This document shows positions 11,158 through 48,822 of a DNA stretch of 64,000 nt, one piece after another. A program made the position numbers and the translations under genes. This stretch comes from an uncultured delta proteobacterium (GTDB lineage Bacteria > Desulfobacterota > Zymogenia > Zymogenales > Zymogenaceae), in contig CAWBYW010000009.1 of the NCBI GenBank assembly GCA_963792965.1, positions 1 through 64,000 of the forward strand, written 5' to 3'. The notes beneath the pieces were generated by a model that was not told where the DNA came from, searched no databases, and saw only the letters and a list, made by a program, of their open reading frames with translations. Positions within the stretch are counted from its first letter, which is position 1, and every line of letters starts with the position of its first letter.

Positions 11158-12290
11158 ATGTTTGACCAACACGTCACGCGCGACACTCGTGCGGTCGTCG
11201 ATCTGGGCGCGCTAGCCGATTCCATTCGTGGGATAAAGCGCCTCGTCGGCGACGCGTGTCGAGGTCATGGCGGTCGTCAAGGCCGACGGCTACGGTCACG
11301 GCGCAATACCGGTCGCCCAGACGGCGCTAAAAAATGGGGCGCGCTCACTCGGCGTGGCCTACGCCCAGGAGGCGGTCGAACTCCGTGAGGCGGGGATCAC
11401 CGCCCCCATCCTCGTGCTCGGCATCGCCCCCCCCGAAGGCATCGAAGCCGCCCTCACGACATGATCTCGTTCAGACCGTCGCCGATGCCGACACCCCGAA
11501 AGCCCTCTCCGCGCGCGCCCCGTCCGACCGTCCCGCCCGCGTCCACGTCAAGGTCGATACCGGTATGGGGAGGATCGGGGTCACGCCCGAGGATACCCTC
11601 GAGTATATACGTTTCCTCAAGCGGCTCCCGGGTATCGTGGTCGAGGGTATCTTCACGCATTTTCCTCGCTCAGACGAAGCCGACCCTTCCTTCACGGACC
11701 GGCAGATCACGACATTCACCGGCCTGATCAGAGACCTCGAGGGAGCACGAATTCATGTTCCCAAGCGTCACATGGCAAACTCCGGGGGTGTGCTGGGCTT
11801 TCCCGATTCGTACCTCAACCTCGTTCGCCCCGGCATCATGATCTACGGGCTTTACCCCTCGGCGGAGGTCAAAAGGACGGTAAGGATCTCGCCCGCGATG
11901 AGCCTGGTAACGAAGATCCGCTTCCTCAAGCGCGTGGGCGCGGGTACCCCCATCAGCTACGGCGGAACCTACGTGACGAAATCCGAGACCGCCGTCGCCA
12001 CCCTCCCCCTCGGATACGCCGACGGCTACCGTCGGCTCCTCTCCAACTCCTACGAGGTGCTCGTGCGGGGACAACGCGCGCCCGTCATCGGCCGGGTCTG
12101 TATGGATATGACGATGGTCGACGTGACGCAGATCGAGGGCGCTTCGGTCGGCGACGAGGTCGTCCTTATCGGCAGGCAGGGCGATGAAGAGATATCGACC
12201 GACGATATGGCTCGCAGGCTCGATACCATCAACTACGAGGTGACCTGCCTGGTCGGCAAGCGGGTCCCCCGGGTCTATATCAATGGGTAG
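11158..12290 (+). CDS. alr: Alanine racemase (two apparent frameshifts)
   Basis: [11 protein letters not shown] (PLP Lys), [31 protein letters not shown] and TINYE spread over three frames. Confidence 0.93.
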
Positions 12291-38906: not shown

Positions 38907-40415
38907 CTATTCCTTTTCGCGCATCTGGGGGAAGAGGATCACGTCCCGTATCGAGGCCGAGTCCGTGAAGATCATCACCATCCTGTCTATGCCGATGCCC
39001 TCGCCCGCCGCGGGGGGCAACCCGTACTCGAGGGCGCGGATGTAGTCTTTGTCATACTCCCGGATCCCTTCCCCGAAGTCGACCGACTCGATCTGGTGCA
39101 GGAACCGCCGCTCCTGGTCGTCCGGGTCGTTGAGCTCCGAAAATCCGTTGGCGACCTCCATCGCCGCGATGTAGAGCTCGAAGCGGTCGGTGAACCCGGG
39201 CTTCTCGTCCGAGGGCCGCGAGAGGGGCGAGACCTCGACGGGGTAGCTCGTGACGAAAACGGGGCCCGTGAGCTTATCCTCCGCGGTCTTCTCGAAAAGC
39301 TCGAGCAGCAGCTTTCCCCATCCCCACGCCGGCTCCGCCTCGGCGCCGAGTTTTTTGAGCCGGTCGCGCATGAGCGACTCGTCCGTGATCGTCTTTTCGT
39401 CGATACCGCCGTATTTCACGACGGCCTCGGCCATCTCGATCCTCTCCCAGGGCGGGGTCAGGTCGAGCTCCGTGCCCTGGTAGGTGATCGATGTTTTACC
39501 GGTGACCTTTGCGGCGACGGAGGCAAACAGCTCCTCGGTGAGATCCATCAGGTCGTGGTAGGTGTGGTAGGTCTCGTAGAATTCGAGCATCGTGAACTCG
39601 GGGTTGTGGTGCGTGGAGATGCCCTCGTTCCTGAAGTTCTTGTTGATCTCAAATACCCGGTCCATCCCGCCCACGAGGAGCCGCTTGAGGTAGAGCTCCG
39701 GCGCGATGCGCAGGAACAGCTCCATGTCCAGCGTGTTGTGATGCGTGACGAAGGGCCGCGCCGCCGCCCCGCCGACGATCTGGTGGAGCATCGGCGTATC
39801 GACCTCGACGAACTCGTGTCCGATGAAAAAGGCGCGGACCTCGGATATCAGGCGGCTCCGCGTCAGGAAGACCTCTTTGACGCGGGGGTTCACCAAGAGG
39901 TCCACGTACCGCCTGCGGTAGCGCGTCTCCACGTCGACGAGGCCGTGCCATTTTTCCGGCAGCGGACGGAGTCCCTTGGTGAGGAGGCGCGACGAGGTGA
40001 CGTTGATGGTCAGCTCGCCCGTCTTGGTCCGAAAGGGGGTGCCAACGATGCCGATGATGTCGCCGATGTCGTAGTGCCGGGTTTCATCGTAATCCCGGCC
40101 CAGCGCCGCGGCCTGGAAGAAGATCTGGATCTGCCCCGTGCCGTCAAGTAAGTGGGCAAATGCCGACTTGCCGAAGTCCCGCTTGGAGACGAGCCGCCCG
40201 GCGACGGCAAGGGCATCGGTGTTGCCCTCGAGGCCCTCGCGCGTGGCGTCCTTGTATTTTTCGGCGATCTCACGGGAGGTGTGGGTGGGGCGGAAGTCGT
40301 TGGGGTAGGGGTTCTTGCCCGCCGCCGCAATCGCGTCGCGCTTTTCCCTCCGGATTCGAATCAATTCCTGTTCGGGCGCCTGGGTCCCTTCCCGCTCCGC
40401 CACCGTTTCCTCCAT
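38907..40415 (-). CDS. lysS: Lysyl-tRNA synthetase, class II
   Basis: [39 protein letters not shown] and GIGIDRM. Confidence 0.98.
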
Positions 40416-40430
40416 TCGTATAAATGAGTT

Positions 40431-40459
40431 ACTTTACCCTATCGATGGCTGTTAGTCAA
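40431..40459 (-). promoter_or_regulatory. Sigma70-like promoter of lysS
   Basis: TTGACT-17 bp-TAAAGT just upstream of the lysS ATG. Confidence 0.55.
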
Positions 40460-40547
40460 GGGGAAAGGGAGCGCCGAGGAGTGCCGACCGGGCCTGCTAA
40501 GGGTCCCCCTGACGGACAAAGGCAGGGGAGTTTATTGTGCGGACACC

Positions 40548-40575
40548 TTGACATTTACAGTCATTGTGATATCGT
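40548..40575 (+). promoter_or_regulatory. Candidate promoter of khpA
   Basis: TTGACA-16 bp-TATCGT with TG extension. Confidence 0.4.
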
Positions 40576-40745
40576 ATAGAGGCTTACCTTACAATGTACC
40601 ATAATGATAATCCAGATTGAATTGGGCTACCGAGCGAGACCGGAGAGATAAGGCATACTTCTACCCTGTGCACGTAGGTCTTAAACTACACGAGAGGGGC
40701 GGAAATGACGAAAGGGGTAATTCAGGTGAAGATGGGGGTTGAAAA

Positions 40746-40976
40746 ATGAAGGAATTGATTAAGCTGATGGCTCAGGCTCTGGTTGACAATCCTGATAAGG
40801 TTGAGGTGAACGAAGTCGTAGGAGAACAGACGTCGGTCATCGAGCTCAGAGTTGCGAAGGAAGACCTGGGAAAGGTAATAGGCAAACAGGGGCGAACGGC
40901 GTACGCGATGAGGACGATCCTTTCGGCCGCATCGATGAAATTCAACAAGCGCGCGGTGTTGGAAATTCTCGAGTAG
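40746..40976 (+). CDS. khpA: KH-domain RNA-binding protein, KhpA family; copy outside the rpsP-rimM operon
   Basis: MKELI...ALVDNPD...[20 protein letters not shown]...R; GKQG is the GxxG loop. Confidence 0.93.
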
Positions 40977-41021
40977 TATGTCCGGGGAGGGGCGGCCTTT
41001 CATATTAATAGAGGTGTCCAA

Positions 41022-41273
41022 ATGGACGAGAAAGCAAAGAAACTGCTGGGACTTTGGTTAGAAACTAGTAATCCTGATCAGCCCTATGCTCACTCCGATG
41101 ACCTTGAAAGATTCTGTATTTTCGTAAAATACGCCTCACAATTCAAACCCCATGATGTTTTACAGGAAGCTGTAAAAGCATTAGAAGAAAAATATGGGGA
41201 TCGTCGAAGAGAGCTCTTCCATGAAGCCGAGAAATACATATATTTCTATGACACCATAAAGAAGATTGGGTAG
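41022..41273 (+). CDS. Hypothetical 83-aa protein, copy 1
   Basis: SD GAGGTG; 82/83 aa identical to 42119-42370 with mainly synonymous changes. Confidence 0.85.
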   Translation: MDEKAKKLLGLWLETSNPDQPYAHSDDLERFCIFVKYASQFKPHDVLQEAVKALEEKYGDRRRELFHEAEKYIYFYDTIKKIG

Positions 41274-41314
41274 TTGGAACGATATTGTGGACCTGAGGCG
41301 CCCAAATAACAGAT

Positions 41315-41398
41315 ATGCGTTGCGCGATATACGCCTGATATGGCACCGAGCTTAAAGACGACAAGTCTATCGAGGACCAAATCCGGGAGTGTCGGGAT
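41315..41398 (+). pseudogene. Serine recombinase N-terminal stub 1
   Basis: Translates MRCAIYA*YGTELKDDKSIEDQIRECRD; matches the serine recombinase N-terminal pattern AIYARYSS-x-x-Q-x-x-x-SIEDQ. Confidence 0.85.
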
Positions 41399-41449
41399 TC
41401 AAGAACACTCCGGGGAGGGCGGTCTTTTTTATTTACACAATCCTAAGAA

Positions 41450-41728
41450 ATGGTGATTAGTATGAAGCCCGGGGAATTTAAGCTGGAAATAGACCAATCT
41501 GAAAAGGATAAATTGTATAGATATGAAGATGGAGAATATATCTATTCTATATTTCCTTCAGACGCACGTGTATATTACGGTCAAAGAGGTACTCACCCAG
41601 CGATATCATTTAAGGGAGGACTTGACACTCAAAAAATAAGTGATCTTCAGTTTGAAGTAATACAGGGGACAAAATATAGACTGACGATTTCTCCTGATGA
41701 GAAGGAGGTAAAGGTCGAAAGTCTTTAG
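41450..41728 (+). CDS. Hypothetical AT-rich cargo protein
   Basis: 92-aa ORF with AT-rich codon usage; no motif recognised. Confidence 0.6.
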   Translation: MVISMKPGEFKLEIDQSEKDKLYRYEDGEYIYSIFPSDARVYYGQRGTHPAISFKGGLDTQKISDLQFEVIQGTKYRLTISPDEKEVKVESL

Positions 41729-41858
41729 AGCCATCTCCATCTATGACTGGCTTAAGTCCTTATGACTTTTCTTAACAAAGGCGCTGTCTTAGAATGGGGC
41801 AATCTGTCTAGAAATCTATCGTGAAAGTAGGTGATGAAACGAACAAAGCAGATTCACC

Positions 41859-41919
41859 CTACTCCCCCCCGCATCCGTCCTTATGCCCGAAGTCCTCGGT
41901 CTGGTCCGTCCAGCCGATC
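41859..41919 (-). repeat. Displaced 3' end of the SH3-like gene, short copy
   Basis: Encodes IGWTDQTEDFGHKDGCGGE*, versus IGWTDETGNFGHMDGCGE* at the end of 48034-48822. Confidence 0.9.
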
Positions 41920-41929
41920 CTCCCCGCGG

Positions 41930-42074
41930 CGTCCTCATCGAGCTCAGGGTTGCGAAGGAAAATATCGGAGTGGTAATAGGTAAACAGGGACGAACGGCGT
42001 ATGCGATGAGGACGATCCTTCCGGCCGCATCGATGAAATTCAACAAACGCGCGGTGCTGGAGATTATCGAGTAG
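41930..42074 (+). pseudogene. khpA: 5'-truncated khpA copy
   Basis: [45 protein letters not shown]; lacks about the first 30 codons. Confidence 0.88.
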
Positions 42075-42118
42075 GATGTCCGGAGAGGACGGCCTTTCAT
42101 ATTGATAGAGGTGTCCGA

Positions 42119-42370
42119 ATGGACGAGAAAGCAAAGAAACTGCTGGGACTTTGGTTGGAAACCAGTAATCCTGATCAGCCCTATGCTCACACTGATGACC
42201 TTGAAAGATTCTGTATTTTCGTAAAATACGCCTCACAATTCAAACCCCATGATGTTTTACAGGAAGCTGTAAAAGCATTAGAAGAAAAATATGGGGACCG
42301 ACGAAGAGAGCTCTTCCATGAAGCCGAGAAATACATATACTTCTATGACACCATAAAGAAGATTGGGTAG
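42119..42370 (+). CDS. Hypothetical 83-aa protein, copy 2
   Basis: 7 nt differences from copy 1 over 252 nt (manual count). Confidence 0.85.
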   Translation: MDEKAKKLLGLWLETSNPDQPYAHTDDLERFCIFVKYASQFKPHDVLQEAVKALEEKYGDRRRELFHEAEKYIYFYDTIKKIG

Positions 42371-42407
42371 TTAGGACAATACGACCTAAGGCGCTTAGAT
42401 AGCAGAT

Positions 42408-42495
42408 ATGGGTTGCGCGATGTGCGCAATTATCTGGTCCCAAGCTCCAGGATGATAAGTCCGTGGAGGACCAGATTCGCGAGTGCCTGGACTAA
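42408..42495 (+). pseudogene. Serine recombinase N-terminal stub 2
   Basis: MGCAMCA, frameshift, then KLQDDKSVEDQIRECLD*. Confidence 0.8.
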
Positions 42496-42544
42496 TGAGT
42501 ACCACGGGGAGGGCAGTTCTCAACTCATGGGGGGGTTCTAAGTA

Positions 42545-43131
42545 TTGATATTATTTCTGGATACCACGGCTATTTTCTCAGTAAAAAAGATGGAACCCAA
42601 TGGTAGTTTAGTTTGTGAACTTGTAGATCTCTGTAAGGAGAATGAAATCAAAGTATTCTGTAGTTATGCATCGAGTAACGAAAGGCAACCGTGTAGCACG
42701 AAATATAAAGACTATATGGCTGAGACTTCCAAATTATTTAGGGAATTGCTTATTAGTTTGAAATTGGATTATATAGAACCTAAAGAAGTACCATTATTTA
42801 TCCTTGGTGAATCCCGTTTGGGCGAGGCTTGTCTTAGTAGCAAAAAAATAGTTGAATTCGCAAATTCTGCTGCCAAGATAATGTTTGGTATTGACTATGA
42901 AAGTCTTAACTCGCAGTCAATAAATGGATGGAAAAATAGACGAGATGTCGAAATTTTTCTTACTTTTGTCTGTAGCGGTGACGGTATCTTGGTGACTTCT
43001 GACGGGCATTTCCTAAGAAAGAGGGATTTCTTGATAGTGGCGGCAAGAGAAAAATAAGATCAAAGATCGATATTTTAGACCCCGAAAGTGCCCTAAACGT
43101 ATTGAAAGAAATGGTAAGATTGGGAACCTAA
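42545..43131 (+). CDS. PIN-domain-like protein, apparent frameshift in an A-run near 43050
   Basis: FLDTT at the N-terminus, RRDVEIF and ILVTSDGHFL; continues in another frame as ...IDILDPESALNVLKEMVRLGT*. Confidence 0.7.
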
Positions 43132-43179
43132 ATGCGATGTGCAATATACGCAAGATATAGTTCCGAACTTTAAGACGAC
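43132..43179 (+). pseudogene. Serine recombinase N-terminal stub 3
   Basis: MRCAIYARYSSEL*DD with the catalytic YARYS motif intact; starts immediately after the PIN stop. Confidence 0.85.
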
Positions 43180-43204
43180 ACGGGCATTTATTCAGGAGGG
43201 TAAG

Positions 43205-43884
43205 ATGAAAAAGGTTATATGCCTCGTCGTTCTCCTGTTAATGGGATGCGCGACATCTTGGGTAGGTAAGAATATGAACGAATTGATAGCAGCGAAGGGT
43301 GAGCCAACACGGACAATAGATGATGGGCGGGGGGGCAGATATTGACTTACATCTCCCATGAAACGCATATGGCAGGAGGATGGTCTACAGGGTCAGGCGG
43401 CTACTGGATAAATGGCAGATACATACCAAAAACCATGACATACAGAAGACCAACTACTACCAAGGTAACAATAGAAAGGCTATTCTACGTAGACAGTTCC
43501 GGTACTATCTATAAGACGGATTCTAATAGAGATACTTCGACCTACGACACCAACGAAGTAAAACCAACATTGCCTCCAATCAGGGGGAAAACAACCGAAG
43601 ATCAGTTAATGGAATACACTGACAGTATTAACAAAAACCCGAAAGACCCGATACTCTACGCAAAGAGAGGCGACTTCTACTATTCACTCTGGCGAGATGA
43701 CGAAGCACTTGCAGACTACAACAAGGCAATAAGCCTTGAGCCGACTAAGAATGGCTTTATCTACTCTAGCCGTGGCAAACTCTACTTGCGGCTTGGAAAA
43801 AGAGAGGAAGCAAAGAGAGATTTTAAGAAGGCTTGTGAGCTTGGGGAGGGCGATGGTTGTTATCAATATAATATTATGTACTAA
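43205..43884 (+). CDS. Lipoprotein with C-terminal TPR repeats, frameshift in a G-run near 43330
   Basis: SD GGAGG; MKKVICLVVLLLMGC lipobox; YAKRG...EALADYNKAISLEP and EAKRDFKKACELG. Confidence 0.8.
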
Positions 43885-43920
43885 TACTATAGATAGAACC
43901 AGGACCAGACCAGAAGGACG

Positions 43921-43999
43921 GGAATTAAGGTGACACCATACTTAATTACTACTTCTCGGCTTAAACTAGAAGCCTATAGAATGTTGTCACTTTAATTCC
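43921..43999. repeat. REPIN/MITE-like palindromic element, copy 2
   Basis: GGAATTAAGGTGACACCAT ... ATGTTGTCACTTTAATTCC (19 bp, 2 mismatches), between convergent genes. Confidence 0.8.
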
Positions 44000-44028
44000 G
44001 ACTCAATTCAAAAACATTCACTATGGAT

Positions 44029-44628
44029 TTAGGATAGAGACTTTTGAAATGCGCGACCCATCTCAAAATCAATATACCTGCTAAGCTCGATTGAACTTCC
44101 ATCTTTGAAATACACTCTGCAAGTGCAGAGGAATGGTCCGTAAGCCGATGTCCTAACACCGATTATGCCGTCTTTCTCGTCTTCCTCAAAAACCCTGTTT
44201 CCCCACATATGGCCAAAAAAGAATGACGCTCTTGCTACATCTGAAAAATCTGTTGTCTTATGTCGGATAAGATAAATAAAGACGTCATATTTCTGTCCCG
44301 GAACTTTCGATGGTGAAATGACATGGGTTAAGAAGATCCCTTTATTTTTCTGATAGACAAGCGTTCTTTTTGGTGCCCAATCCTCTTCTACTTTCTTGGA
44401 TCCAATCTTATCCTCACCGGGGGGGGCATAATCCAGTTGCCTTAAGTCTGCGCCTATTTCGACGGGACCGGCTTTGAAAGAACTGCCTTTACGTATTCTG
44501 AGAATTATAGTATCGAAGAGGTGAGTGAGTCGCCTGTAAAACACGCATAAGAAGATAGCAATAAGTAGAATCCAGGCAATGGTCTGTAATAAAGGTACAT
44601 ATGGAGCTATCGTGATAAGGTTACACAT
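44029..44628 (-). CDS. Membrane-anchored prokaryotic YEATS (pYEATS)-like protein
   Basis: N-terminal TM helix; YDVFIYLIRH...FFFGHMWGNRVF...TSAYGPFLC...FKDG...LSRYIDFEMG pattern recognised from memory. Confidence 0.7.
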   Translation of the reverse strand: MCNLITIAPYVPLLQTIAWILLIAIFLCVFYRRLTHLFDTIILRIRKGSSFKAGPVEIGADLRQLDYAPPGEDKIGSKKVEEDWAPKRTLVYQKNKGIFLTHVISPSKVPGQKYDVFIYLIRHKTTDFSDVARASFFFGHMWGNRVFEEDEKDGIIGVRTSAYGPFLCTCRVYFKDGSSIELSRYIDFEMGRAFQKSLS

Positions 44629-44694
44629 TCCACAAATCTTTACAGTAACAGCCTGATTATCACGGGTAAGGGCCCAATCCTACTTTTGTGTTTC

Positions 44695-44804
44695 CTATTC
44701 CCCCCCGCACCCATCCTTATGCCCAAAGTTGTCGGTCTGGTCCGTCCAGCCGATCTGTCCCTTACTGTTGCGGATCTTCACCCACCAGGTCCACACGGGC
44801 TCGA
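44695..44804 (-). repeat. Displaced 3' end of the SH3-like gene, long copy
   Basis: EPVWTWWVKIRNSKGQIGWTDQTDNFGHKDGCGGE*; 44765-44804 is identical to 48101-48140. Confidence 0.92.
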
Positions 44805-44806
44805 AG

Positions 44807-47554
44807 CTACCGGTCAGTCCCGTCCAGGACCTTCCGGATCTTTTCCGAGAATTCCCTGAGCGTGGCCGGTTTCTGGATGAATCCTTCGACGCCGCTCATA
44901 TCTATTTCGCCCGCCTTGCCGTTTAGAGTATACCCCGAGGTGATCAGGACTTTCACGCCGGGGTCCGCCTCCCTGAGCCCCGCCAGGGTGTCCTTGCCCC
45001 CCATCTTCGGCATGATGACGTCGAGGATAACGAGATCTATTTCACCGCTTTTCTCCCTGAACATCGAGAGGCCCTGCTGCCCGTTTTCCGCCAGGAGCAC
45101 GCTGTACCCCATCCGCAACAGGTACTCGGCCCACACATTCCTTACCACCGGTTCGTCGTCAATGATGAGGATGGTCTCTTGTCCTCCCTCGTGGTCTTTC
45201 TTGTTCAAGACCCTGTCTTTTTTGACCGTGCCCCTGGTGACCGGGAAGTAGAGGTTGAACGTCGTTCCCTCTCCGGGCTCGCTGTAGACGGTGATAAACC
45301 CTCCATGCTTTTTTACCGTTCCGTACACCGTCGCAAGCCCCATCCCCGTCCCGCCCTGATCCAGCTTCGTGGTGAAGAACGGTTCGAAGAGGTGGTCTTT
45401 CACCTCCTGCGTCATGCCGGTCCCCGTATCGGTCACGGAAAGGACCAGGTGCTCACCTTCCTGGCTGCCGATGTGCGTCCGTACGAAATCGCCGTCCAGG
45501 TATTTATGAGAGGTTTCTATGACCAGGGTTCCTCCCGTGAGCATCGCGTCCCGCGCGTTGATGCAGAGGTTCAGGACGCATTGCTCCACGTAGGAGGCGT
45601 CCACCTCGAAGGACGGCAGGGAATCCGAAAGAATGGTCTTGATCTCGATGGATTTGTCAAACGCCCCCGTTACGAGGGGAAGGATGTGTTCCACGATCTC
45701 GTTAACGCTGCCGGTTACCAGACGGTACTCGCCGGCCCGGGTCACGTTCAGCAGCTCCCGCGTCAGCTGGGACGCCTTGAGCGTCCCCTCGAAAATGGTC
45801 TTCAGGGCCTTGTATTCGGGATCTCCCTCACCCCTCTTACCGAGCAGGTACTCCGAGTACCCCATGATGCCAACGAGGACGTTGTTGAAGTTATGGGCGA
45901 TACCGCCAGCCATGGCCCCGATCGCCTCCATCTTCTGGGCCTGGAGGAACTGCCCCTCAAGCTTTTTCCGTTCCGTGACTTCCCGGGCGAATACCATCAG
46001 GCCCTCTTTCCCCTCCCACGTGATGGCTACCCCGATGGCCTCGTACCACCCGGTTTCACCGGTCTTCTTAATATACCGGTATTCCGAAGGATAGGTCAGC
46101 GAATCCCCCCCGAGTTTCCTGCGGAATTCCCTCTCGGCCGGTTCATTGTCTTCCGGGAAAGTGAGCTCTCCCAGGGATTTCCCTTTCAGCTCCTCGGGGG
46201 AATAGCCGGTCATCCGTTCGGTCATCGGGTTGGCATACACGACCAGCCCGTCGACAAAGATCATGATGGCCTCCTGCGCGTTTTCGACGACCTGACGGTA
46301 TTTCTCCTCCGATTCTCTCAACGCCTCTTCTGCCCGCCTGCGGTCCGTGATGTCCCTCAAAGTCCCCTGAAATCCGACCACACGATTTTCTTTCCTAATC
46401 AGACTGACCGACCCTTCAACGCTTATCTCCTGCCCTTGCCTATTGAGCATTTGGTACATGATATACTCAATCGGCCTACCACTTTCGTATAGACCCTTAT
46501 ATTCCTCTACGATCCGTTTTCTTACTTCGGGTTTTAACCTATCGAACGTGCTTTTTCCTATCGACTCGTTTCCTGGATAACCCGAGAGCAATTCTGCTGC
46601 TTTGTTCATCGAGGTTACCCTTCCTTTGAGGTCTATAGTAAAAATGGCCTCTATTGAATTCTCAAAAAGATTACGAAAGCGTTCTTCCGATTCCCGCAGC
46701 GCCTCCTGGGCCCTTTTCCGCTCGGTGACGTCCCTGAGGACCCCCTGGAACCCGGTAAAAACGCCGTCCCTGTAGAGAAGGTTTGCGGATCCTTCGACGG
46801 TTCTCTTCGTTCCGTCCTTCCTGACGAGGGTGAATTCGAAGTCTCTGACAGGCTCTCCCGACCGGTACATTTGGCTATAGGAGGCGTAGAATCTCCGGGC
46901 GTCCTCCTCGTTCACCCCTTTGCGGAAGCTCTCCCCGATAGTCTCTTTCCTCGGGTAGCCCGTGAGCTCCACGAAGACATCATTAACCTCGGTGAAGTGA
47001 CCTCTCTGATCGAGCGTGAAAAGCGCCTCGACGGAGTCGTTGAAGAGGTTTCTGTACTGTTCGGCCGTGCTTTTCAGCTCCCTGTTTGCCCCCGCAAGCT
47101 CCTTCGTCCGCTCCTCCACCTCCCGCTTGAGGGTCTCCTGTGCTCTCCGCAGAGACTCTTCCAGGTGCTTGTGGTACGCCGCGTATCTTATGGAACGGGC
47201 GAGGACGCCCCCATCGAAATGGCCCTTCAGCAGGTAGTCCTGCGCCCCCTTTTCGAGCGATTCCGTGGCTGTAGCCTCGTCATCCATTCCGGATGCGACT
47301 ACTATCGCCAGCGTACTGTCTGCCGATACGATTTCCTCCAGCGTCGCGATTCCCTGGCTGTCGGGGAGATTCAGGTCCAACAAGACCAGGTCGTATTCCC
47401 CCGCCTCGAGGAGTTCCCTGCCACGGGAAAGCGTGGCGGCGGTATCCAGGGTGTAGGGGACCGCTTTCTGCGCTGAAAGCATGTCCGCGACCACCTGTTG
47501 ATCCAGGGGGTTGTCTTCTATCTGCAGGATCCTGAATGCTTTTCTTCTTGACAT
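44807..47554 (-). CDS. Hybrid sensor histidine kinase (REC-3xPAS-HisKA-HATPase-REC)
   Basis: LLDLNLPD; three PAS repeats; QAQKMEAIGAMAGGIAHNFNN; NLCINARDAM; DTGTGM; PFFTTK; ILDVIMP. Confidence 0.95.
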   Translation of the reverse strand: MSRRKAFRILQIEDNPLDQQVVADMLSAQKAVPYTLDTAATLSRGRELLEAGEYDLVLLDLNLPDSQGIATLEEIVSADSTLAIVVASGMDDEATATESLEKGAQDYLLKGHFDGGVLARSIRYAAYHKHLEESLRRAQETLKREVEERTKELAGANRELKSTAEQYRNLFNDSVEALFTLDQRGHFTEVNDVFVELTGYPRKETIGESFRKGVNEEDARRFYASYSQMYRSGEPVRDFEFTLVRKDGTKRTVEGSANLLYRDGVFTGFQGVLRDVTERKRAQEALRESEERFRNLFENSIEAIFTIDLKGRVTSMNKAAELLSGYPGNESIGKSTFDRLKPEVRKRIVEEYKGLYESGRPIEYIMYQMLNRQGQEISVEGSVSLIRKENRVVGFQGTLRDITDRRRAEEALRESEEKYRQVVENAQEAIMIFVDGLVVYANPMTERMTGYSPEELKGKSLGELTFPEDNEPAEREFRRKLGGDSLTYPSEYRYIKKTGETGWYEAIGVAITWEGKEGLMVFAREVTERKKLEGQFLQAQKMEAIGAMAGGIAHNFNNVLVGIMGYSEYLLGKRGEGDPEYKALKTIFEGTLKASQLTRELLNVTRAGEYRLVTGSVNEIVEHILPLVTGAFDKSIEIKTILSDSLPSFEVDASYVEQCVLNLCINARDAMLTGGTLVIETSHKYLDGDFVRTHIGSQEGEHLVLSVTDTGTGMTQEVKDHLFEPFFTTKLDQGGTGMGLATVYGTVKKHGGFITVYSEPGEGTTFNLYFPVTRGTVKKDRVLNKKDHEGGQETILIIDDEPVVRNVWAEYLLRMGYSVLLAENGQQGLSMFREKSGEIDLVILDVIMPKMGGKDTLAGLREADPGVKVLITSGYTLNGKAGEIDMSGVEGFIQKPATLREFSEKIRKVLDGTDR

Positions 47555-48033
47555 TGAAGCGTCCTGTCCAAATCAAAGGTAAAAGGCACTCGCGTATTCT
47601 CCGGGGAAAAGCATCGAGCGCGGAGTCAGCATTGATTTAGCTGCATGCGCATAGTTATGTACCTTCATCCTGAACCCGCTCACGCATCTCGGGAAATCGT
47701 GTTTCTCAGAAAGATCGAAGGCCGACGTGCCTTCTTTGATGTGCGACTCGAGGGTAGGGAGAGGAACGACGGCCAAGGCGGATTTATTATACGCTCAAAT
47801 ATTCAAAATGCAACTAAAATGATTTACAGGCTGAGTCTCGATTGTTTATAAGTTTGGCAATCGTTTAGGCGGTACTCAACCATGTGTTTCGGGGGCGTGC
47901 TTTTCGGTCAGGTCGTGCACCCGAGCGCCCTCTTCCCGATCCCTTTCGAGAAAGGGTGTGGGAATCAGGGCCAGCGAGCCCATGTGGCAAACGAAAAACG
48001 TCGAATTTCTAAATCTGAATCCCCTTACTCCCC

Positions 48034-48822
48034 TTACTCCCCGCACCCGTCCATGTGCCCGAAGTTGCCGGTCTCGTCCGTCCAGCCGATCTGGCCCTTG
48101 CTGTTGCGGATCTTCACCCACCAGGTCCACACGGGCTCGACCGTCATGACGATCGGCTCATAGCCCTCCACGCTGTCCAACAGCTGCCCCTTGAACCAGG
48201 CCCTGTACGTCCCCTCCCCCTGGTAGGTCAAGTACTCCACGATGTCCCCCACCGCTGCCGGCCGGTTGCCGAGCGGCATGGGCGACCTTATCTCGCCCCG
48301 TCCCGGTACCGTCGTGATCACCACGCCGGTCGTCCCAGTCACCCATTCCCCGGCCTTCGCCGTAAAGACGACCGGCGAGGTGGCCAGCCGATCCGCGCGT
48401 ATCGGCGTATCTTTTGTGACGCTCCAGTCGCGGTAGGTGCAGCACTCAAAGGGGCACGCGCCCCAATCCTCGTAAGGGAGCTTCGGCCCGGCGGGGTCGA
48501 TGGCCGGCTCGAACCTCCGCGCATCGCCGGCGTCGATCGTCAAAAAGTGCCCGAAGACAAACCCCGACCGGTCCCCGAAGGTGATGTAGTACCAGTAGGC
48601 CGGAATCGCCCCCGATCGTCTCGAATACCCCCGTCCGGTTGACGACCGTAACCCTGGTCCCCTTGTCCAGCGAGATGACGACGACGGCGTCCGTGCGCGC
48701 CTCCTCGCGCAGGCGCACGCCGTCCCCGGCGATCGTCGCGTTGTCGGCGCCGAACGCCCCGACCGGCCGACAGGCGCCGCGAGGAGGAGACAGACCGAGA
48801 TCAAAAAGAGGATTTTTTTCAT
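48034..48822 (-). CDS. Secreted SH3-like domain protein, frameshifted in its 5' half
   Basis: Signal peptide; (V)RLREEARTDAVVVISLDKGTRVTV, WYYITFGDRSGFVFG, ACPFECCTY and WWVKIRNSKGQIGW. Confidence 0.7.
   Translation of the reverse strand: MKKILFLISVCLLLAAPVGRSGRSAPTTRRSPGTACACARRRARTPSSSSRWTRGPGLRSSTGRGYSRRSGAIPAYWYYITFGDRSGFVFGHFLTIDAGDARRFEPAIDPAGPKLPYEDWGACPFECCTYRDWSVTKDTPIRADRLATSPVVFTAKAGEWVTGTTGVVITTVPGRGEIRSPMPLGNRPAAVGDIVEYLTYQGEGTYRAWFKGQLLDSVEGYEPIVMTVEPVWTWWVKIRNSKGQIGWTDETGNFGHMDGCGE

Follow-up and report, generated by a model that had tools for sequence, protein, structure and literature searches.

Three short remnants in the window (the whole 64,000-nucleotide stretch of DNA that was analysed) are, judged from their sequence, dead relics of serine-recombinase (integrase) genes, each preserving the 5' end of such a gene over 17-28 codons. 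The best explanation, to which we give a probability of about 55%, is that they are the dead 5' ends of three large serine recombinase (LSR) genes in a hotspot islet, and that the junction at codon 28 shared by two of them was made twice, site-specifically. The remnants, referred to as stubs, are the following:

41315-41398, plus strand: stub 1, the first 28 codons of an LSR gene; codon 8 is TGA, and Gly stands in place of Ser10.
42408-42492, plus strand: stub 2, a frameshifted LSR 5' end with codons 13-28 readable, followed by TAA TGA.
43132-43182, plus strand: stub 3, the first 17 codons of a third LSR allele, with TAA at codon 14 and the YARYS motif kept.

The original prediction had placed N-terminal stubs at 41315, 42408 and 43132; the peptides it quoted were reproduced, and all three stubs are matched in tblastn by the LSR of a related genome (G003). 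Translation reveals a stop codon or a frameshift in 3 of 3 stubs, the frameshift of stub 2 lying near codon 8, and residue 10 of stub 1 is Gly where the G003 relative has Ser10. The claim that stubs 1 and 2 stop at the same codon holds for stub 2, whereas the reading frame of stub 1 continues past codon 28 and recombinase similarity alone ends there. Stub 3 breaks near codon 17, and its flank is unrelated to those of stubs 1 and 2. At most residues 1-28 remain of the PF00239 catalytic domain (~145 aa), PF07508 and PF13408 are absent 3' of the stubs, nor were they found in the window's own genome, and the stubs fall short of a functional LSR, whose catalytic domain carries the Ser nucleophile in YARxS. 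Being too short as queries on their own, they gave no match in Pfam or in PDB sequence searches.

A full-length LSR, which the original prediction had suggested seeking with tBLASTn, was found as an intact 548-aa homolog in G003, a genome of the same family (locus L019:1194-2840). A profile search recognized its PF00239, PF07508 and PF13408 domains, and its best NCBIfam match is CcrB (E 3.6e-40), at 138 bits far below the cut-off of 900 bits. Searched by tblastn against the window, this protein matched stub 1 (E 7.7e-10), stub 2 (E 0.003) and stub 3 (E 0.006), the only two other rows being spurious (E 1.3 and 4.9); the per-genome E value for stub 1 is 4.5e-9. Identity to stub 1 is 71% over 34 aa, and the first 28 residues of the G003 LSR match the stubs. 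Both the G003 LSR and the stub family have the rare MRCAIYARY start, and a degenerate pattern of the first nine codons, to which stub 3 shows 0 mismatches, is present in just two genomes of the 401 searched in the phylum, the window's own (2 sites) and G003 (1 site), the control giving 0. The same N-terminal motif is present in 59 other LSR representatives, and the stubs show the similarity to a bona fide LSR 5' end that marks an LSR gene remnant.

Searches for close LSR alleles reached at best 31% identity to the G003 LSR in the genome-contig collection (1 locus), at most 39% in metagenome contigs (80 loci kept), and plasmids and phages gave no more than 34%; a 60% identical LSR representative (P0002) is available as a protein without DNA context. 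No intact allele of stub 1 or stub 2 was found in any collection searched, which counts against the preferred explanation. A degenerate DNA pattern for DDKS[IV]EDQIREC had no match in the genome-contig or viral-contig collections, and stub 1, lengthened to 40 aa as a protein query, yielded 1 candidate, with none scored. In the window's own genome PF00239 and PF07508 gave 0 matches, a control for the PF00239 search having recovered the domain in 12 of 14 known genomes. Neither the matching C-terminal halves anticipated by the original prediction nor any recombinase piece beyond the three stubs (by tblastn) was found in the window or in the genome, whose assembly is 88.85% complete. Since no recombinase sequence past codon 28 was found in the assembly, nothing here can recombine now; a recombinase gene may lie on a contig missing from it, a point against the preferred explanation.

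All three stubs lie between two border genes, displaced 3' ends of which also occur nearby:

40746-40976, plus strand: left border, a second khpA-like KH-domain gene, 76 aa, chromosomal (PF13083, E 2.4e-24).
41858-41934, minus strand: first displaced 3' fragment of the SH3-like gene (repeat D5, 90% identity with 44694-44755).
41935-42074, plus strand: 3' part of the KH gene, displaced and reaching from nt ~92 as far as the stop (repeat D2, 89%).
44694-44796, minus strand: second displaced 3' fragment of the SH3-like gene (repeat, BLAST, translation).
48034-48822, minus strand: right border, the intact SH3-like gene, 262 aa (profile match, synteny).

The rpsP-rimM-trmD operon on contig C7 contains the canonical khpA, and the second khpA-like gene stands at the same place after lysS in G002, G005, G007 and G009, with 86-88% amino acid identity. 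These relatives keep the order lysS, KH, SH3, lolE and carry other content, 1.5-5 kb long, in the KH-SH3 interval; a displaced KH 3' fragment also occurs in G009. GC content is 0.36-0.53 across 40400-44700, compared with 0.58 for the genome. The displaced copies in the window comprise one KH 3' fragment and two SH3 3' fragments, the first of the latter having a BLAST match to 48011-48091 with which its translation agrees, and no tRNA or Rfam family was detected in the window. Foreign composition, conserved flanks, variable content and 3'-end repeats, as looked for in a decayed element at a hotspot, are all present. The 4.3-kb low-GC foreign islet fills an insertion hotspot between convergent KH and SH3-like genes, and this hotspot has been entered repeatedly, because the duplicated 3' ends of both border genes mark separate events. 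Each arrival of integrative DNA left a displaced 3'-end copy of a border gene.

Upstream of stubs 1 and 2 lie two copies of an orphan reading frame, against which the divergence of the stubs can be set:

41022-41273, plus strand: 83-aa orphan ORF, copy 1 (ORF list; no family match).
42119-42370, plus strand: 83-aa orphan ORF, copy 2, 7 nt and 1 aa different from copy 1.

Over the 12-codon DDKS-EDQIREC block, stubs 1 and 2 differ by 7 synonymous codon changes plus one I/V change, and the adjacent 83-aa ORFs differ at 7 of 252 nt, counts first given in the original prediction and reproduced here. Third codon positions account for 11/14 differences between stubs 1 and 2 (P 6.9e-4, in a codon-bias test whose small basis of 16 codons counts against the preferred explanation), for 19/24 between stub 1 and the intact G003 gene, and for 9/12 in a third comparison. 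Since the differences are almost all at third positions, the stubs were separate alleles that worked until fairly recently, which bears out the earlier suggestion of different, once-functional recombinase genes; the best reading is that at least three related LSR elements left the stubs. Synonymous divergence (pS) is ~1 between the stubs; for the adjacent 83-aa ORFs it is 0.12, and for the KH 3' part 0.26.

These figures also bear on a different history, in which one truncation at codon 28 was followed by tandem duplication of a ~680-bp block (KH 3' end, 83-aa ORF, stub and flank), either through unequal crossing-over or because a circularised homologous fragment inserted in the Campbell manner; the copies would then have diverged, with the left part kept alike by gene conversion. 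The blocks are colinear with identical ends, the break between stub and flank is common to both units, and the displaced KH fragment is nearest to the window's own KH gene (88.8% identity, versus 83-84% to the relatives). Moreover, one date fits the KH 3' part (89%), the spacer (82%) and the 83-aa ORFs (pS 0.12), and the unit spans mid-KH to the SH3 3' fragment, as expected of a circularised hotspot segment. Pseudogene copies, however, should differ evenly by codon position, contrary to the third-position excess of the stubs; the stub pS stands far from that of the ORFs next door, 0 of 20000 random placements of the stub differences were as synonymous as observed, and conversion from a 70%-identical outside allele seems unlikely. 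This history is accordingly regarded as unlikely, though more probable than the other alternatives. Outside the stub, unit divergence fits one duplication, an observation that was counted against the preferred explanation.

The resemblance of the two units to alleles would also be expected if the assembler had joined two strain variants of one locus in tandem, and the genome is indeed a 42-contig draft with 3.98% contamination. However, exact contigs (0 differences) from two sequencing runs cover parts of the islet, and a 151-nt contig of run X2 (41876-42026) bridges the junction between the SH3 and KH fragments, where the units meet, with 0 differences. Further exact pieces cover 41740-41890, 42036-42269, 42972-43121 and 43149-43299, and no alternative joint within 40600-44800 was seen in the covered parts (two runs, short contigs, low depth). 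Although the two runs may be the source sample, so that their support is not fully independent, such an artefact is the least probable of the readings considered, its likelihood being close to nil.

The codon-28 junction is best described together with a motif that follows the KH gene and recurs in the islet:

40974-41013, plus strand: KH stop codon and ~35-nt downstream motif, copy 1 (alignable to what follows the KH gene in relatives).
41399-41438, plus strand: stub 1 flank, KH-downstream motif copy 2 (shuffle test; dyad).
42072-42111, plus strand: KH-downstream motif, copy 3 (alignment).
42493-42532, plus strand: stub 2 flank, a diverged KH-downstream motif, copy 4 (shuffle test).

Stubs 1 and 2 both end after codon 28 and are joined there to a homologous flank, a copy of the KH-downstream sequence whose homology starts at the position of the KH stop codon. 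When the stub 1 flank was compared with KH1, KH2, G002 and the G009 fragment, 0/2000 shuffles scored as high as the real sequence. For that of stub 2, 5 to 8 of 2000 shuffles did so in comparisons with G002, G009 and the stub 1 flank, and 88/2000 in that with KH1, a weaker match than that of the stub 1 flank. The stub 1 junction is a centre of dyad symmetry (41398|41399; score 9/16, with scores of at least 9 at 28 of 4400 islet positions). The stub 2 junction has no dyad symmetry, which, with its weaker flank match, was counted against the preferred explanation. RNA folds of the motif copies are no better than those of shuffled sequences (z-scores -1.3 to +1.6), and CCGGGGAGGGCGG is not a genome-wide repeat, with 30 sites at no more than 1 mismatch in 3.36 Mb. 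Simple decay is no explanation for two stubs breaking at the same codon; the shared junction was probably made site-specifically. The original prediction of a cut at a fixed point stands where stubs 1 and 2 are concerned (both at codon 28, with homologous flanks) and fails for stub 3 (codon ~17, unrelated flank). Nor does the break at codon 28 extend to a relic in G001, which starts at residue 237, where it was cut.

Under the preferred explanation, the recombinase itself would have produced the codon-28 junction, twice and site-specifically, the reacting sites being its own 5' coding region and a KH-downstream att-like site flanking the integrated element. Such a self-reaction would have deleted the remainder of the recombinase gene along with the element, and stub 3 would represent a separate, ordinary truncation. 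Large serine integrases are not known to recombine an attR-type site with a pseudo-site, which counts against this explanation. At codon 28 the G003 gene shows no dyad, judged by eye, and its similarity to its own att region is not significant, both of which were likewise counted against it. This similarity, a match of G003 codons 25-29 at 12/13 positions beside its own tRNA, was dropped because 196/2000 shuffles reach the score and because it lies in native flank shared with the window's own genome.

The stubs were read in the original prediction, by analogy with SSV-type integrases, as possible att scars, with attP inside the recombinase gene. In the explicit form of this reading, attP would occupy codon 28/29, attB would coincide with the KH stop codon, integration would split the gene, codons 1-28 with the KH-downstream sequence would be the attR scar of two elements, and the C-terminal part and cargo would have been lost later by homologous deletion between KH copies. 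In this scheme the codon boundary common to stubs 1 and 2, the start of flank homology at the position of the KH stop codon and the placement of the stub 1 junction at a dyad centre all find a place; the stubs were coding-constrained until recently, and the crossover would fall on a codon boundary in both genes. Own-gene targets are moreover established for archaeal SSV-type tyrosine integrases (PMC8371274). The split, however, has left no C-terminal half in the window or genome, each 83-aa ORF is preceded by an intact KH stop codon and motif rather than by recombinase codon 29, and no KH-recombinase fusion occurs among the 120 entries listed out of 199 longer KH proteins. The nearest intact genes are whole while integrated: the G003 gene is unbroken in the chromosome, reads toward a convergent target gene and overlaps the 3' half of tRNA-Met with its last 44 nt, and P0002, judged by its tail, is likewise whole with target overlap at the gene 3' end. 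With the different breaks of stub 3 and the G001 relic, the missing dyad of stub 2 and the extra deletion step required in each unit, this scheme is improbable. In a milder form of an attP within the gene, the enzyme would repeatedly delete itself via a pseudo-site in its own 5' coding region. At the G003 locus, the gene upstream of the LSR is unrelated to the 83-aa ORF, and probing for the far end of the island with the tRNA-Met segment returned a second tRNA-Met gene only.

The original prediction had also assigned a cargo gene to each stub. Reading frames do begin after the stubs, at 41450, 42545 and 43205, two of them without a family match:

41450-41728, plus strand: 92-aa ORF after stub 1, no family (ORF list, family searches).
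42545-43057, plus strand: 170-aa ORF between stubs 2 and 3, no family (ORF list, family searches).
43205-43884, plus strand: lipoprotein-like/TPR gene in two frames, 43205-43345 and 43342-43884 (ORF list, profile).
44029-44628, minus strand: 199-aa protein with a prokaryotic YEATS domain (PF20305, E 2.6e-13).

Compared with PADLOC and PHROGs, the cargo ORFs belong to no family except for weak TPR-type matches; for the 170-aa ORF, a weak language-model (Atlas) match to a PIN domain (score 0.90) is a lead only. The 83-aa ORF matched only itself among 5.8 billion proteins and was not found in 60 relatives. It had been suggested that such stubs could be reusable cassette boundaries. In an explicit form of this idea, stub and motif together would form a working platform comparable to an integron attC, where a recombinase acting in trans inserts and exchanges ORFs. 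Short ORFs do alternate with stubs or motifs, and the motif occurs in 4 copies within 1.6 kb, two of which match the 18-mer where 0.11 matches are expected. However, two motif copies belong to the native sequence downstream of KH and also occur in relatives that lack cassettes, each stub is mutated differently, and no serine recombinase was found in the genome. No related array was found in the 60 relatives (83-aa ORF) or the 401 phylum genomes (stub pattern), promoter-like and terminator-like sites are not enriched (9 versus 8.1 and 2 versus 4.7 expected, respectively), and the two runs gave no sign of turnover in the form of alternative islet joints. A working platform is therefore very improbable, and the ORFs after the stubs are best explained as islet neighbours rather than stub-dependent cassettes.

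The stubs thus mark a small integration hotspot beside the second khpA-like gene, through which at least three related serine-recombinase elements appear to have passed; their use lies in island annotation and little else. If the recombinase made the codon-28 junction, a recombination site lies within its own 5' coding region, and if the reading with attP inside the gene were true, it would be a bacterial serine counterpart of the archaeal 'suicidal' tyrosine integrases. In a review, SSV-type 'suicidal' tyrosine integrases are described as found exclusively in archaea, and recombinases that disrupt their own genes as known only among archaeal tyrosine integrases (PMC8371274). The stubs resemble that system in having a recombinase gene fragment at a boundary of foreign DNA, in two copies with a fixed break (PMC8371274). 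According to the same source, both gene halves flank the element in SSV-type integration, whereas N-terminal pieces alone are present here; the SSV-type enzymes are tyrosine recombinases, whereas the stubs are of the serine family and their nearest intact relative is unsplit (PMC8371274). The C-terminal half expected of own-gene targeting was not found in the window or the genome, and a common breakpoint is seen for stubs 1 and 2, not for stub 3 or the G001 relic (residue 237). Within the titles and abstract beginnings of the literature searched, no title described a serine integrase whose own gene contains attP. Compared with the G003 element at tRNA-Met, the stubs belong to the same recombinase subfamily and likewise read toward a convergent target gene; there, in contrast, the gene is whole and target overlap is at its 3' end rather than at codon 28.

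Two further systems are relevant. Integron gene-cassette arrays combine an integrase, attI and folded attC-type sites. As in such arrays, short ORFs alternate with a recurring short sequence in the islet; unlike them, the islet has no resident integrase, no attI and no supported attC-type hairpin, and two of its motif copies are native. SCC composite islands at rlmH with CcrAB/CcrC, and ICE/CIME accretion in streptococci, are instances of accreted elements at gene-3'-end hotspots. The islet differs from these in retaining just 17-28 codons per recombinase and no intact element, in having two remnants with one break joined to target-downstream sequence, and in its targets, a khpA paralog and an SH3-like gene. 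It resembles them in its low-GC foreign DNA between conserved genes, in segments flanked by direct repeats of target 3' ends, in content that varies among relatives, and in its recombinase remnants, whose G003 relative has CcrB as its best NCBIfam match.

The draft genome (3.36 Mb in 42 contigs, 57-58% GC, 88.85% complete, 3.98% contamination) carries, within the window (the initial 64 kb of contig C9), three short 5' remnants of large serine recombinase (LSR) genes, for all of which the peptides quoted in the original prediction were reproduced on translation:

41315-41398: stub 1, 28 codons, TGA at codon 8, Gly at position 10
42408-42492: stub 2, frameshift near codon 8, codons 13-28 clean, then TAA TGA
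43132-43182: stub 3, 17 codons, TAA at codon 14

As the stubs alone were too short to give a match in Pfam or PDB sequence searches, an intact relative was sought. The Recombinase domain is present in 12 of 61 genomes (domain search), and the full-length homolog anticipated by the original prediction exists in G003, a genome of the same family, as a whole 548-aa protein with Resolvase, Recombinase and zinc-ribbon domains, residues 1-28 of which closely resemble the stubs. By tblastn, this protein matches the window at the stubs only (E 7.7e-10, 0.003 and 0.006), two further rows (E 1.3 and 4.9) being noise. The pattern of the first nine codons occurs in 2/401 genomes of the phylum (two sites in this genome and one in G003; control matches, 0), while the N-terminal motif is general in the LSR clade, as seen in the first 60 proteins of a representative search; the closest representative, P0002, is 60% identical and the next 40%. 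Further recombinase pieces were not recovered by tblastn with the stubs or the whole G003 protein, and PF00239 and PF07508 have no match in this 88.85% complete genome (positive control: PF00239 recovered in 12 of 14 known genomes). The assembly thus appears to retain no functional recombinase, and such a gene may lie on a missing contig.

Stubs 1 and 2 belong to two colinear units (40837-41423 and 41935-42517), each running from the 3' part of a khpA-like KH-domain gene (KH) through an 83-aa ORF to the stub, with identity reported as decreasing from left to right:

KH 3' part: 89%
83-aa ORF region: 96%
spacer: 82%
stub and flank: 71%

The sole match of the 83-aa ORF in a set of 5.8 billion proteins is the protein itself, and a search of 60 relatives did not recover it. 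Its two copies differ at 7/252 nt, and the 12-codon block of stubs 1 and 2 shows seven silent codon changes and a single I/V replacement, both counts being as originally given. Over codons 13-28, 14 nt differ between these stubs, 11 of which are third codon positions (binomial P 6.9e-4), with 10.5 synonymous versus 3.5 non-synonymous changes, a bias reached by 0/20000 random placements; pS is ~1 for the stubs, 0.12 for the 83-aa ORFs and 0.26 for the KH part. Compared with the intact G003 gene, third positions account for 19/24 differences in stub 1 and 9/12 in stub 3. This bias indicates that the stubs are three alleles that diverged while they were working genes, bearing out their proposed origin from different functional recombinase genes, rather than drifted copies of a single pseudogene. 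A single truncation followed by duplication of the unit, which would fit the colinearity and the divergence of all parts but the stub, leaves the third-position bias unexplained and is considered unlikely.

In stubs 1 and 2, recombinase similarity stops after codon 28, where a copy of ~35 nt normally found 3' of the KH stop codon begins. The score of the stub 1 flank against the two KH copies of the window, G002 and a G009 fragment was reached by 0/2000 shuffles; the stub 2 flank is weaker (5-8/2000 against G002, G009 and the stub 1 flank; 88/2000 against KH1), and the stub 3 flank shows no similarity to the motif in the same comparison. The suggested cut at a fixed point therefore holds for stubs 1 and 2 but not for stub 3, with its 17 codons and unrelated flank. 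The motif was not borne out as a genome-wide repeat and folds no better than shuffles. At stub 1, dyad symmetry over ±60 nt peaks exactly at the junction (score 9/16, with scores as high at 28/4400 islet positions); none was detected at the stub 2 junction.

An attP within the recombinase gene, as in SSV-type integration, would also account for the break at one codon, the flank derived from the target and the dyad of stub 1, but domain searches and tblastn revealed no matching C-terminal half in the window or genome, and each 83-aa ORF is preceded by an intact KH stop codon and motif rather than by recombinase codon 29. Moreover, the 120 entries listed out of 199 longer KH proteins include none with a recombinase domain. 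The G003 gene is unbroken although integrated, its last 44 nt overlapping the 3' half of a tRNA-Met on the opposite strand (locus L019, contig C36, 2797-2873), and P0002 has the same tRNA-derived residues at its end, which together imply that the target copy belongs to the 3' end of the gene in this LSR subfamily; the genome studied here carries the same tRNA-Met without a recombinase gene. A G001 relic of the subfamily (L130, contig C270, 2416-2880; 54% identity) begins at residue 237 instead. This relic lies directly after a divergent universal-stress-like ORF and extends off the contig end. No serine integrase with attP in its own gene was found in the literature, in which subscription journals were thinly covered, so that absence is unproven. 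SSV-type att scars, as originally suggested, are thus not borne out, and this explanation is quite improbable.

Given the evidence against duplication and against an attP within the gene, we favor, with a probability of roughly 0.55, the interpretation that the stubs are relics of at least three elements and that the codon-28 junction was made twice by site-specific deletion. Such a deletion would have joined a site in the 5' end of the gene to the site downstream of KH that flanked the element; this step is inferred, and it is where the account is least secure. Taken as relics, the stubs are a known type of finding; their shared junction is a curiosity that is cheap to test.

GC drops to 0.36-0.53 across about 40400-44700. 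The order lolE, lysS, KH facing an SH3-like gene (SH3), lolE and further genes is shared with four nearest-genus genomes (G002, G005, G007 and G009), and because this order is kept, the KH of the window is chromosomal. It is a second paralog, and a conserved one: of the two khpA-like KH-domain genes in this genome (C7:309452-309715 and 40746-40976 in the window; DNA ~78% identical), the canonical khpA lies on contig C7 within the rpsP-rimM-trmD operon, and the extra copy adjoining lysS is kept in the sister genus as well. The KH-SH3 interval spans 7 kb in the window and 1.5-5 kb, with differing content, in relatives, including an ICMT-like membrane protein in G002 and G007, and nuclease-like, epimerase-like and hydratase-like ORFs plus a TPR lipoprotein in G009. 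Displaced 3' fragments of both border genes occur in the window:

41858-41934: displaced SH3 3' fragment 1
41935-42074: displaced KH 3' fragment
44694-44796: displaced SH3 3' fragment 2

The left edge of the KH fragment is at ~nt 125 of the gene in G009 versus ~nt 92 in the window, and SH3 3' fragments adjoin KH on its downstream side in G002 and G007. Recurrent copies of the 3' ends of target genes beside foreign DNA are the trace expected of elements that integrated site-specifically several times and then decayed, and comparison with relatives points to the KH-SH3 interval as an insertion hotspot, probably hit repeatedly in this way. A 151-nt contig of another run, possibly the source sample, bridges the SH3-fragment/KH-fragment junction with 0 differences, so the tandem structure is no assembly artefact. 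In G009 (L132, contig C6, 11578-14676), KH and three metabolic/nuclease-like ORFs precede a displaced KH 3' fragment, with no recombinase remnant, and the TPR lipoprotein has 36% identity to the lipoprotein/TPR of the window. The G007 hotspot (L031, 5780-5860) and the stretch directly before the G009 KH fragment (L132, ~11700-11780) hold short, GC-rich, repeat-like sequences of one kind. On the minus strand of region 44694-48106, a gene of normal GC (44807-47554) encodes a 915-aa hybrid histidine kinase/response regulator. It is placed between a ~100-nt SH3 3' fragment and the 3' end of intact SH3 and looks like another insertion bordered by a repeat of the target end; all four relatives lack it at the hotspot.

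The stubs had been described as directly upstream of cargo genes. An ORF does follow each stub, but nothing found links these neighbors to the stubs functionally, and promoter-like and terminator-like sites show no enrichment. Searches of Pfam, NCBIfam, PADLOC and PHROGs place the 92-aa and 170-aa ORFs in no family, with a weak PIN lead only for the latter. The lipoprotein/TPR gene after stub 3 lies in two frames (43205-43345, lipoprotein-like start; 43342-43884, TPR ORF) and looks like one gene whose reading frame shifts in a G-run near 43323-43336; it is a pseudogene, or the shift is a sequencing error. The islet also encodes a 199-aa protein (44029-44628) with a prokaryotic YEATS domain (E 2.6e-13) and no PADLOC match; this domain has been linked to conflict systems.

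A gene of G003 size (1647 nt) starting at stub 3 (43132) would end at ~44779, inside the convergent SH3 3' fragment 2 (to 44796). The SH3 3' end may thus have been the target of the stub 3 element, or the placement may be coincidence; the projected end within a convergent SH3 fragment resembles the end of the G003 gene within a convergent tRNA-Met.
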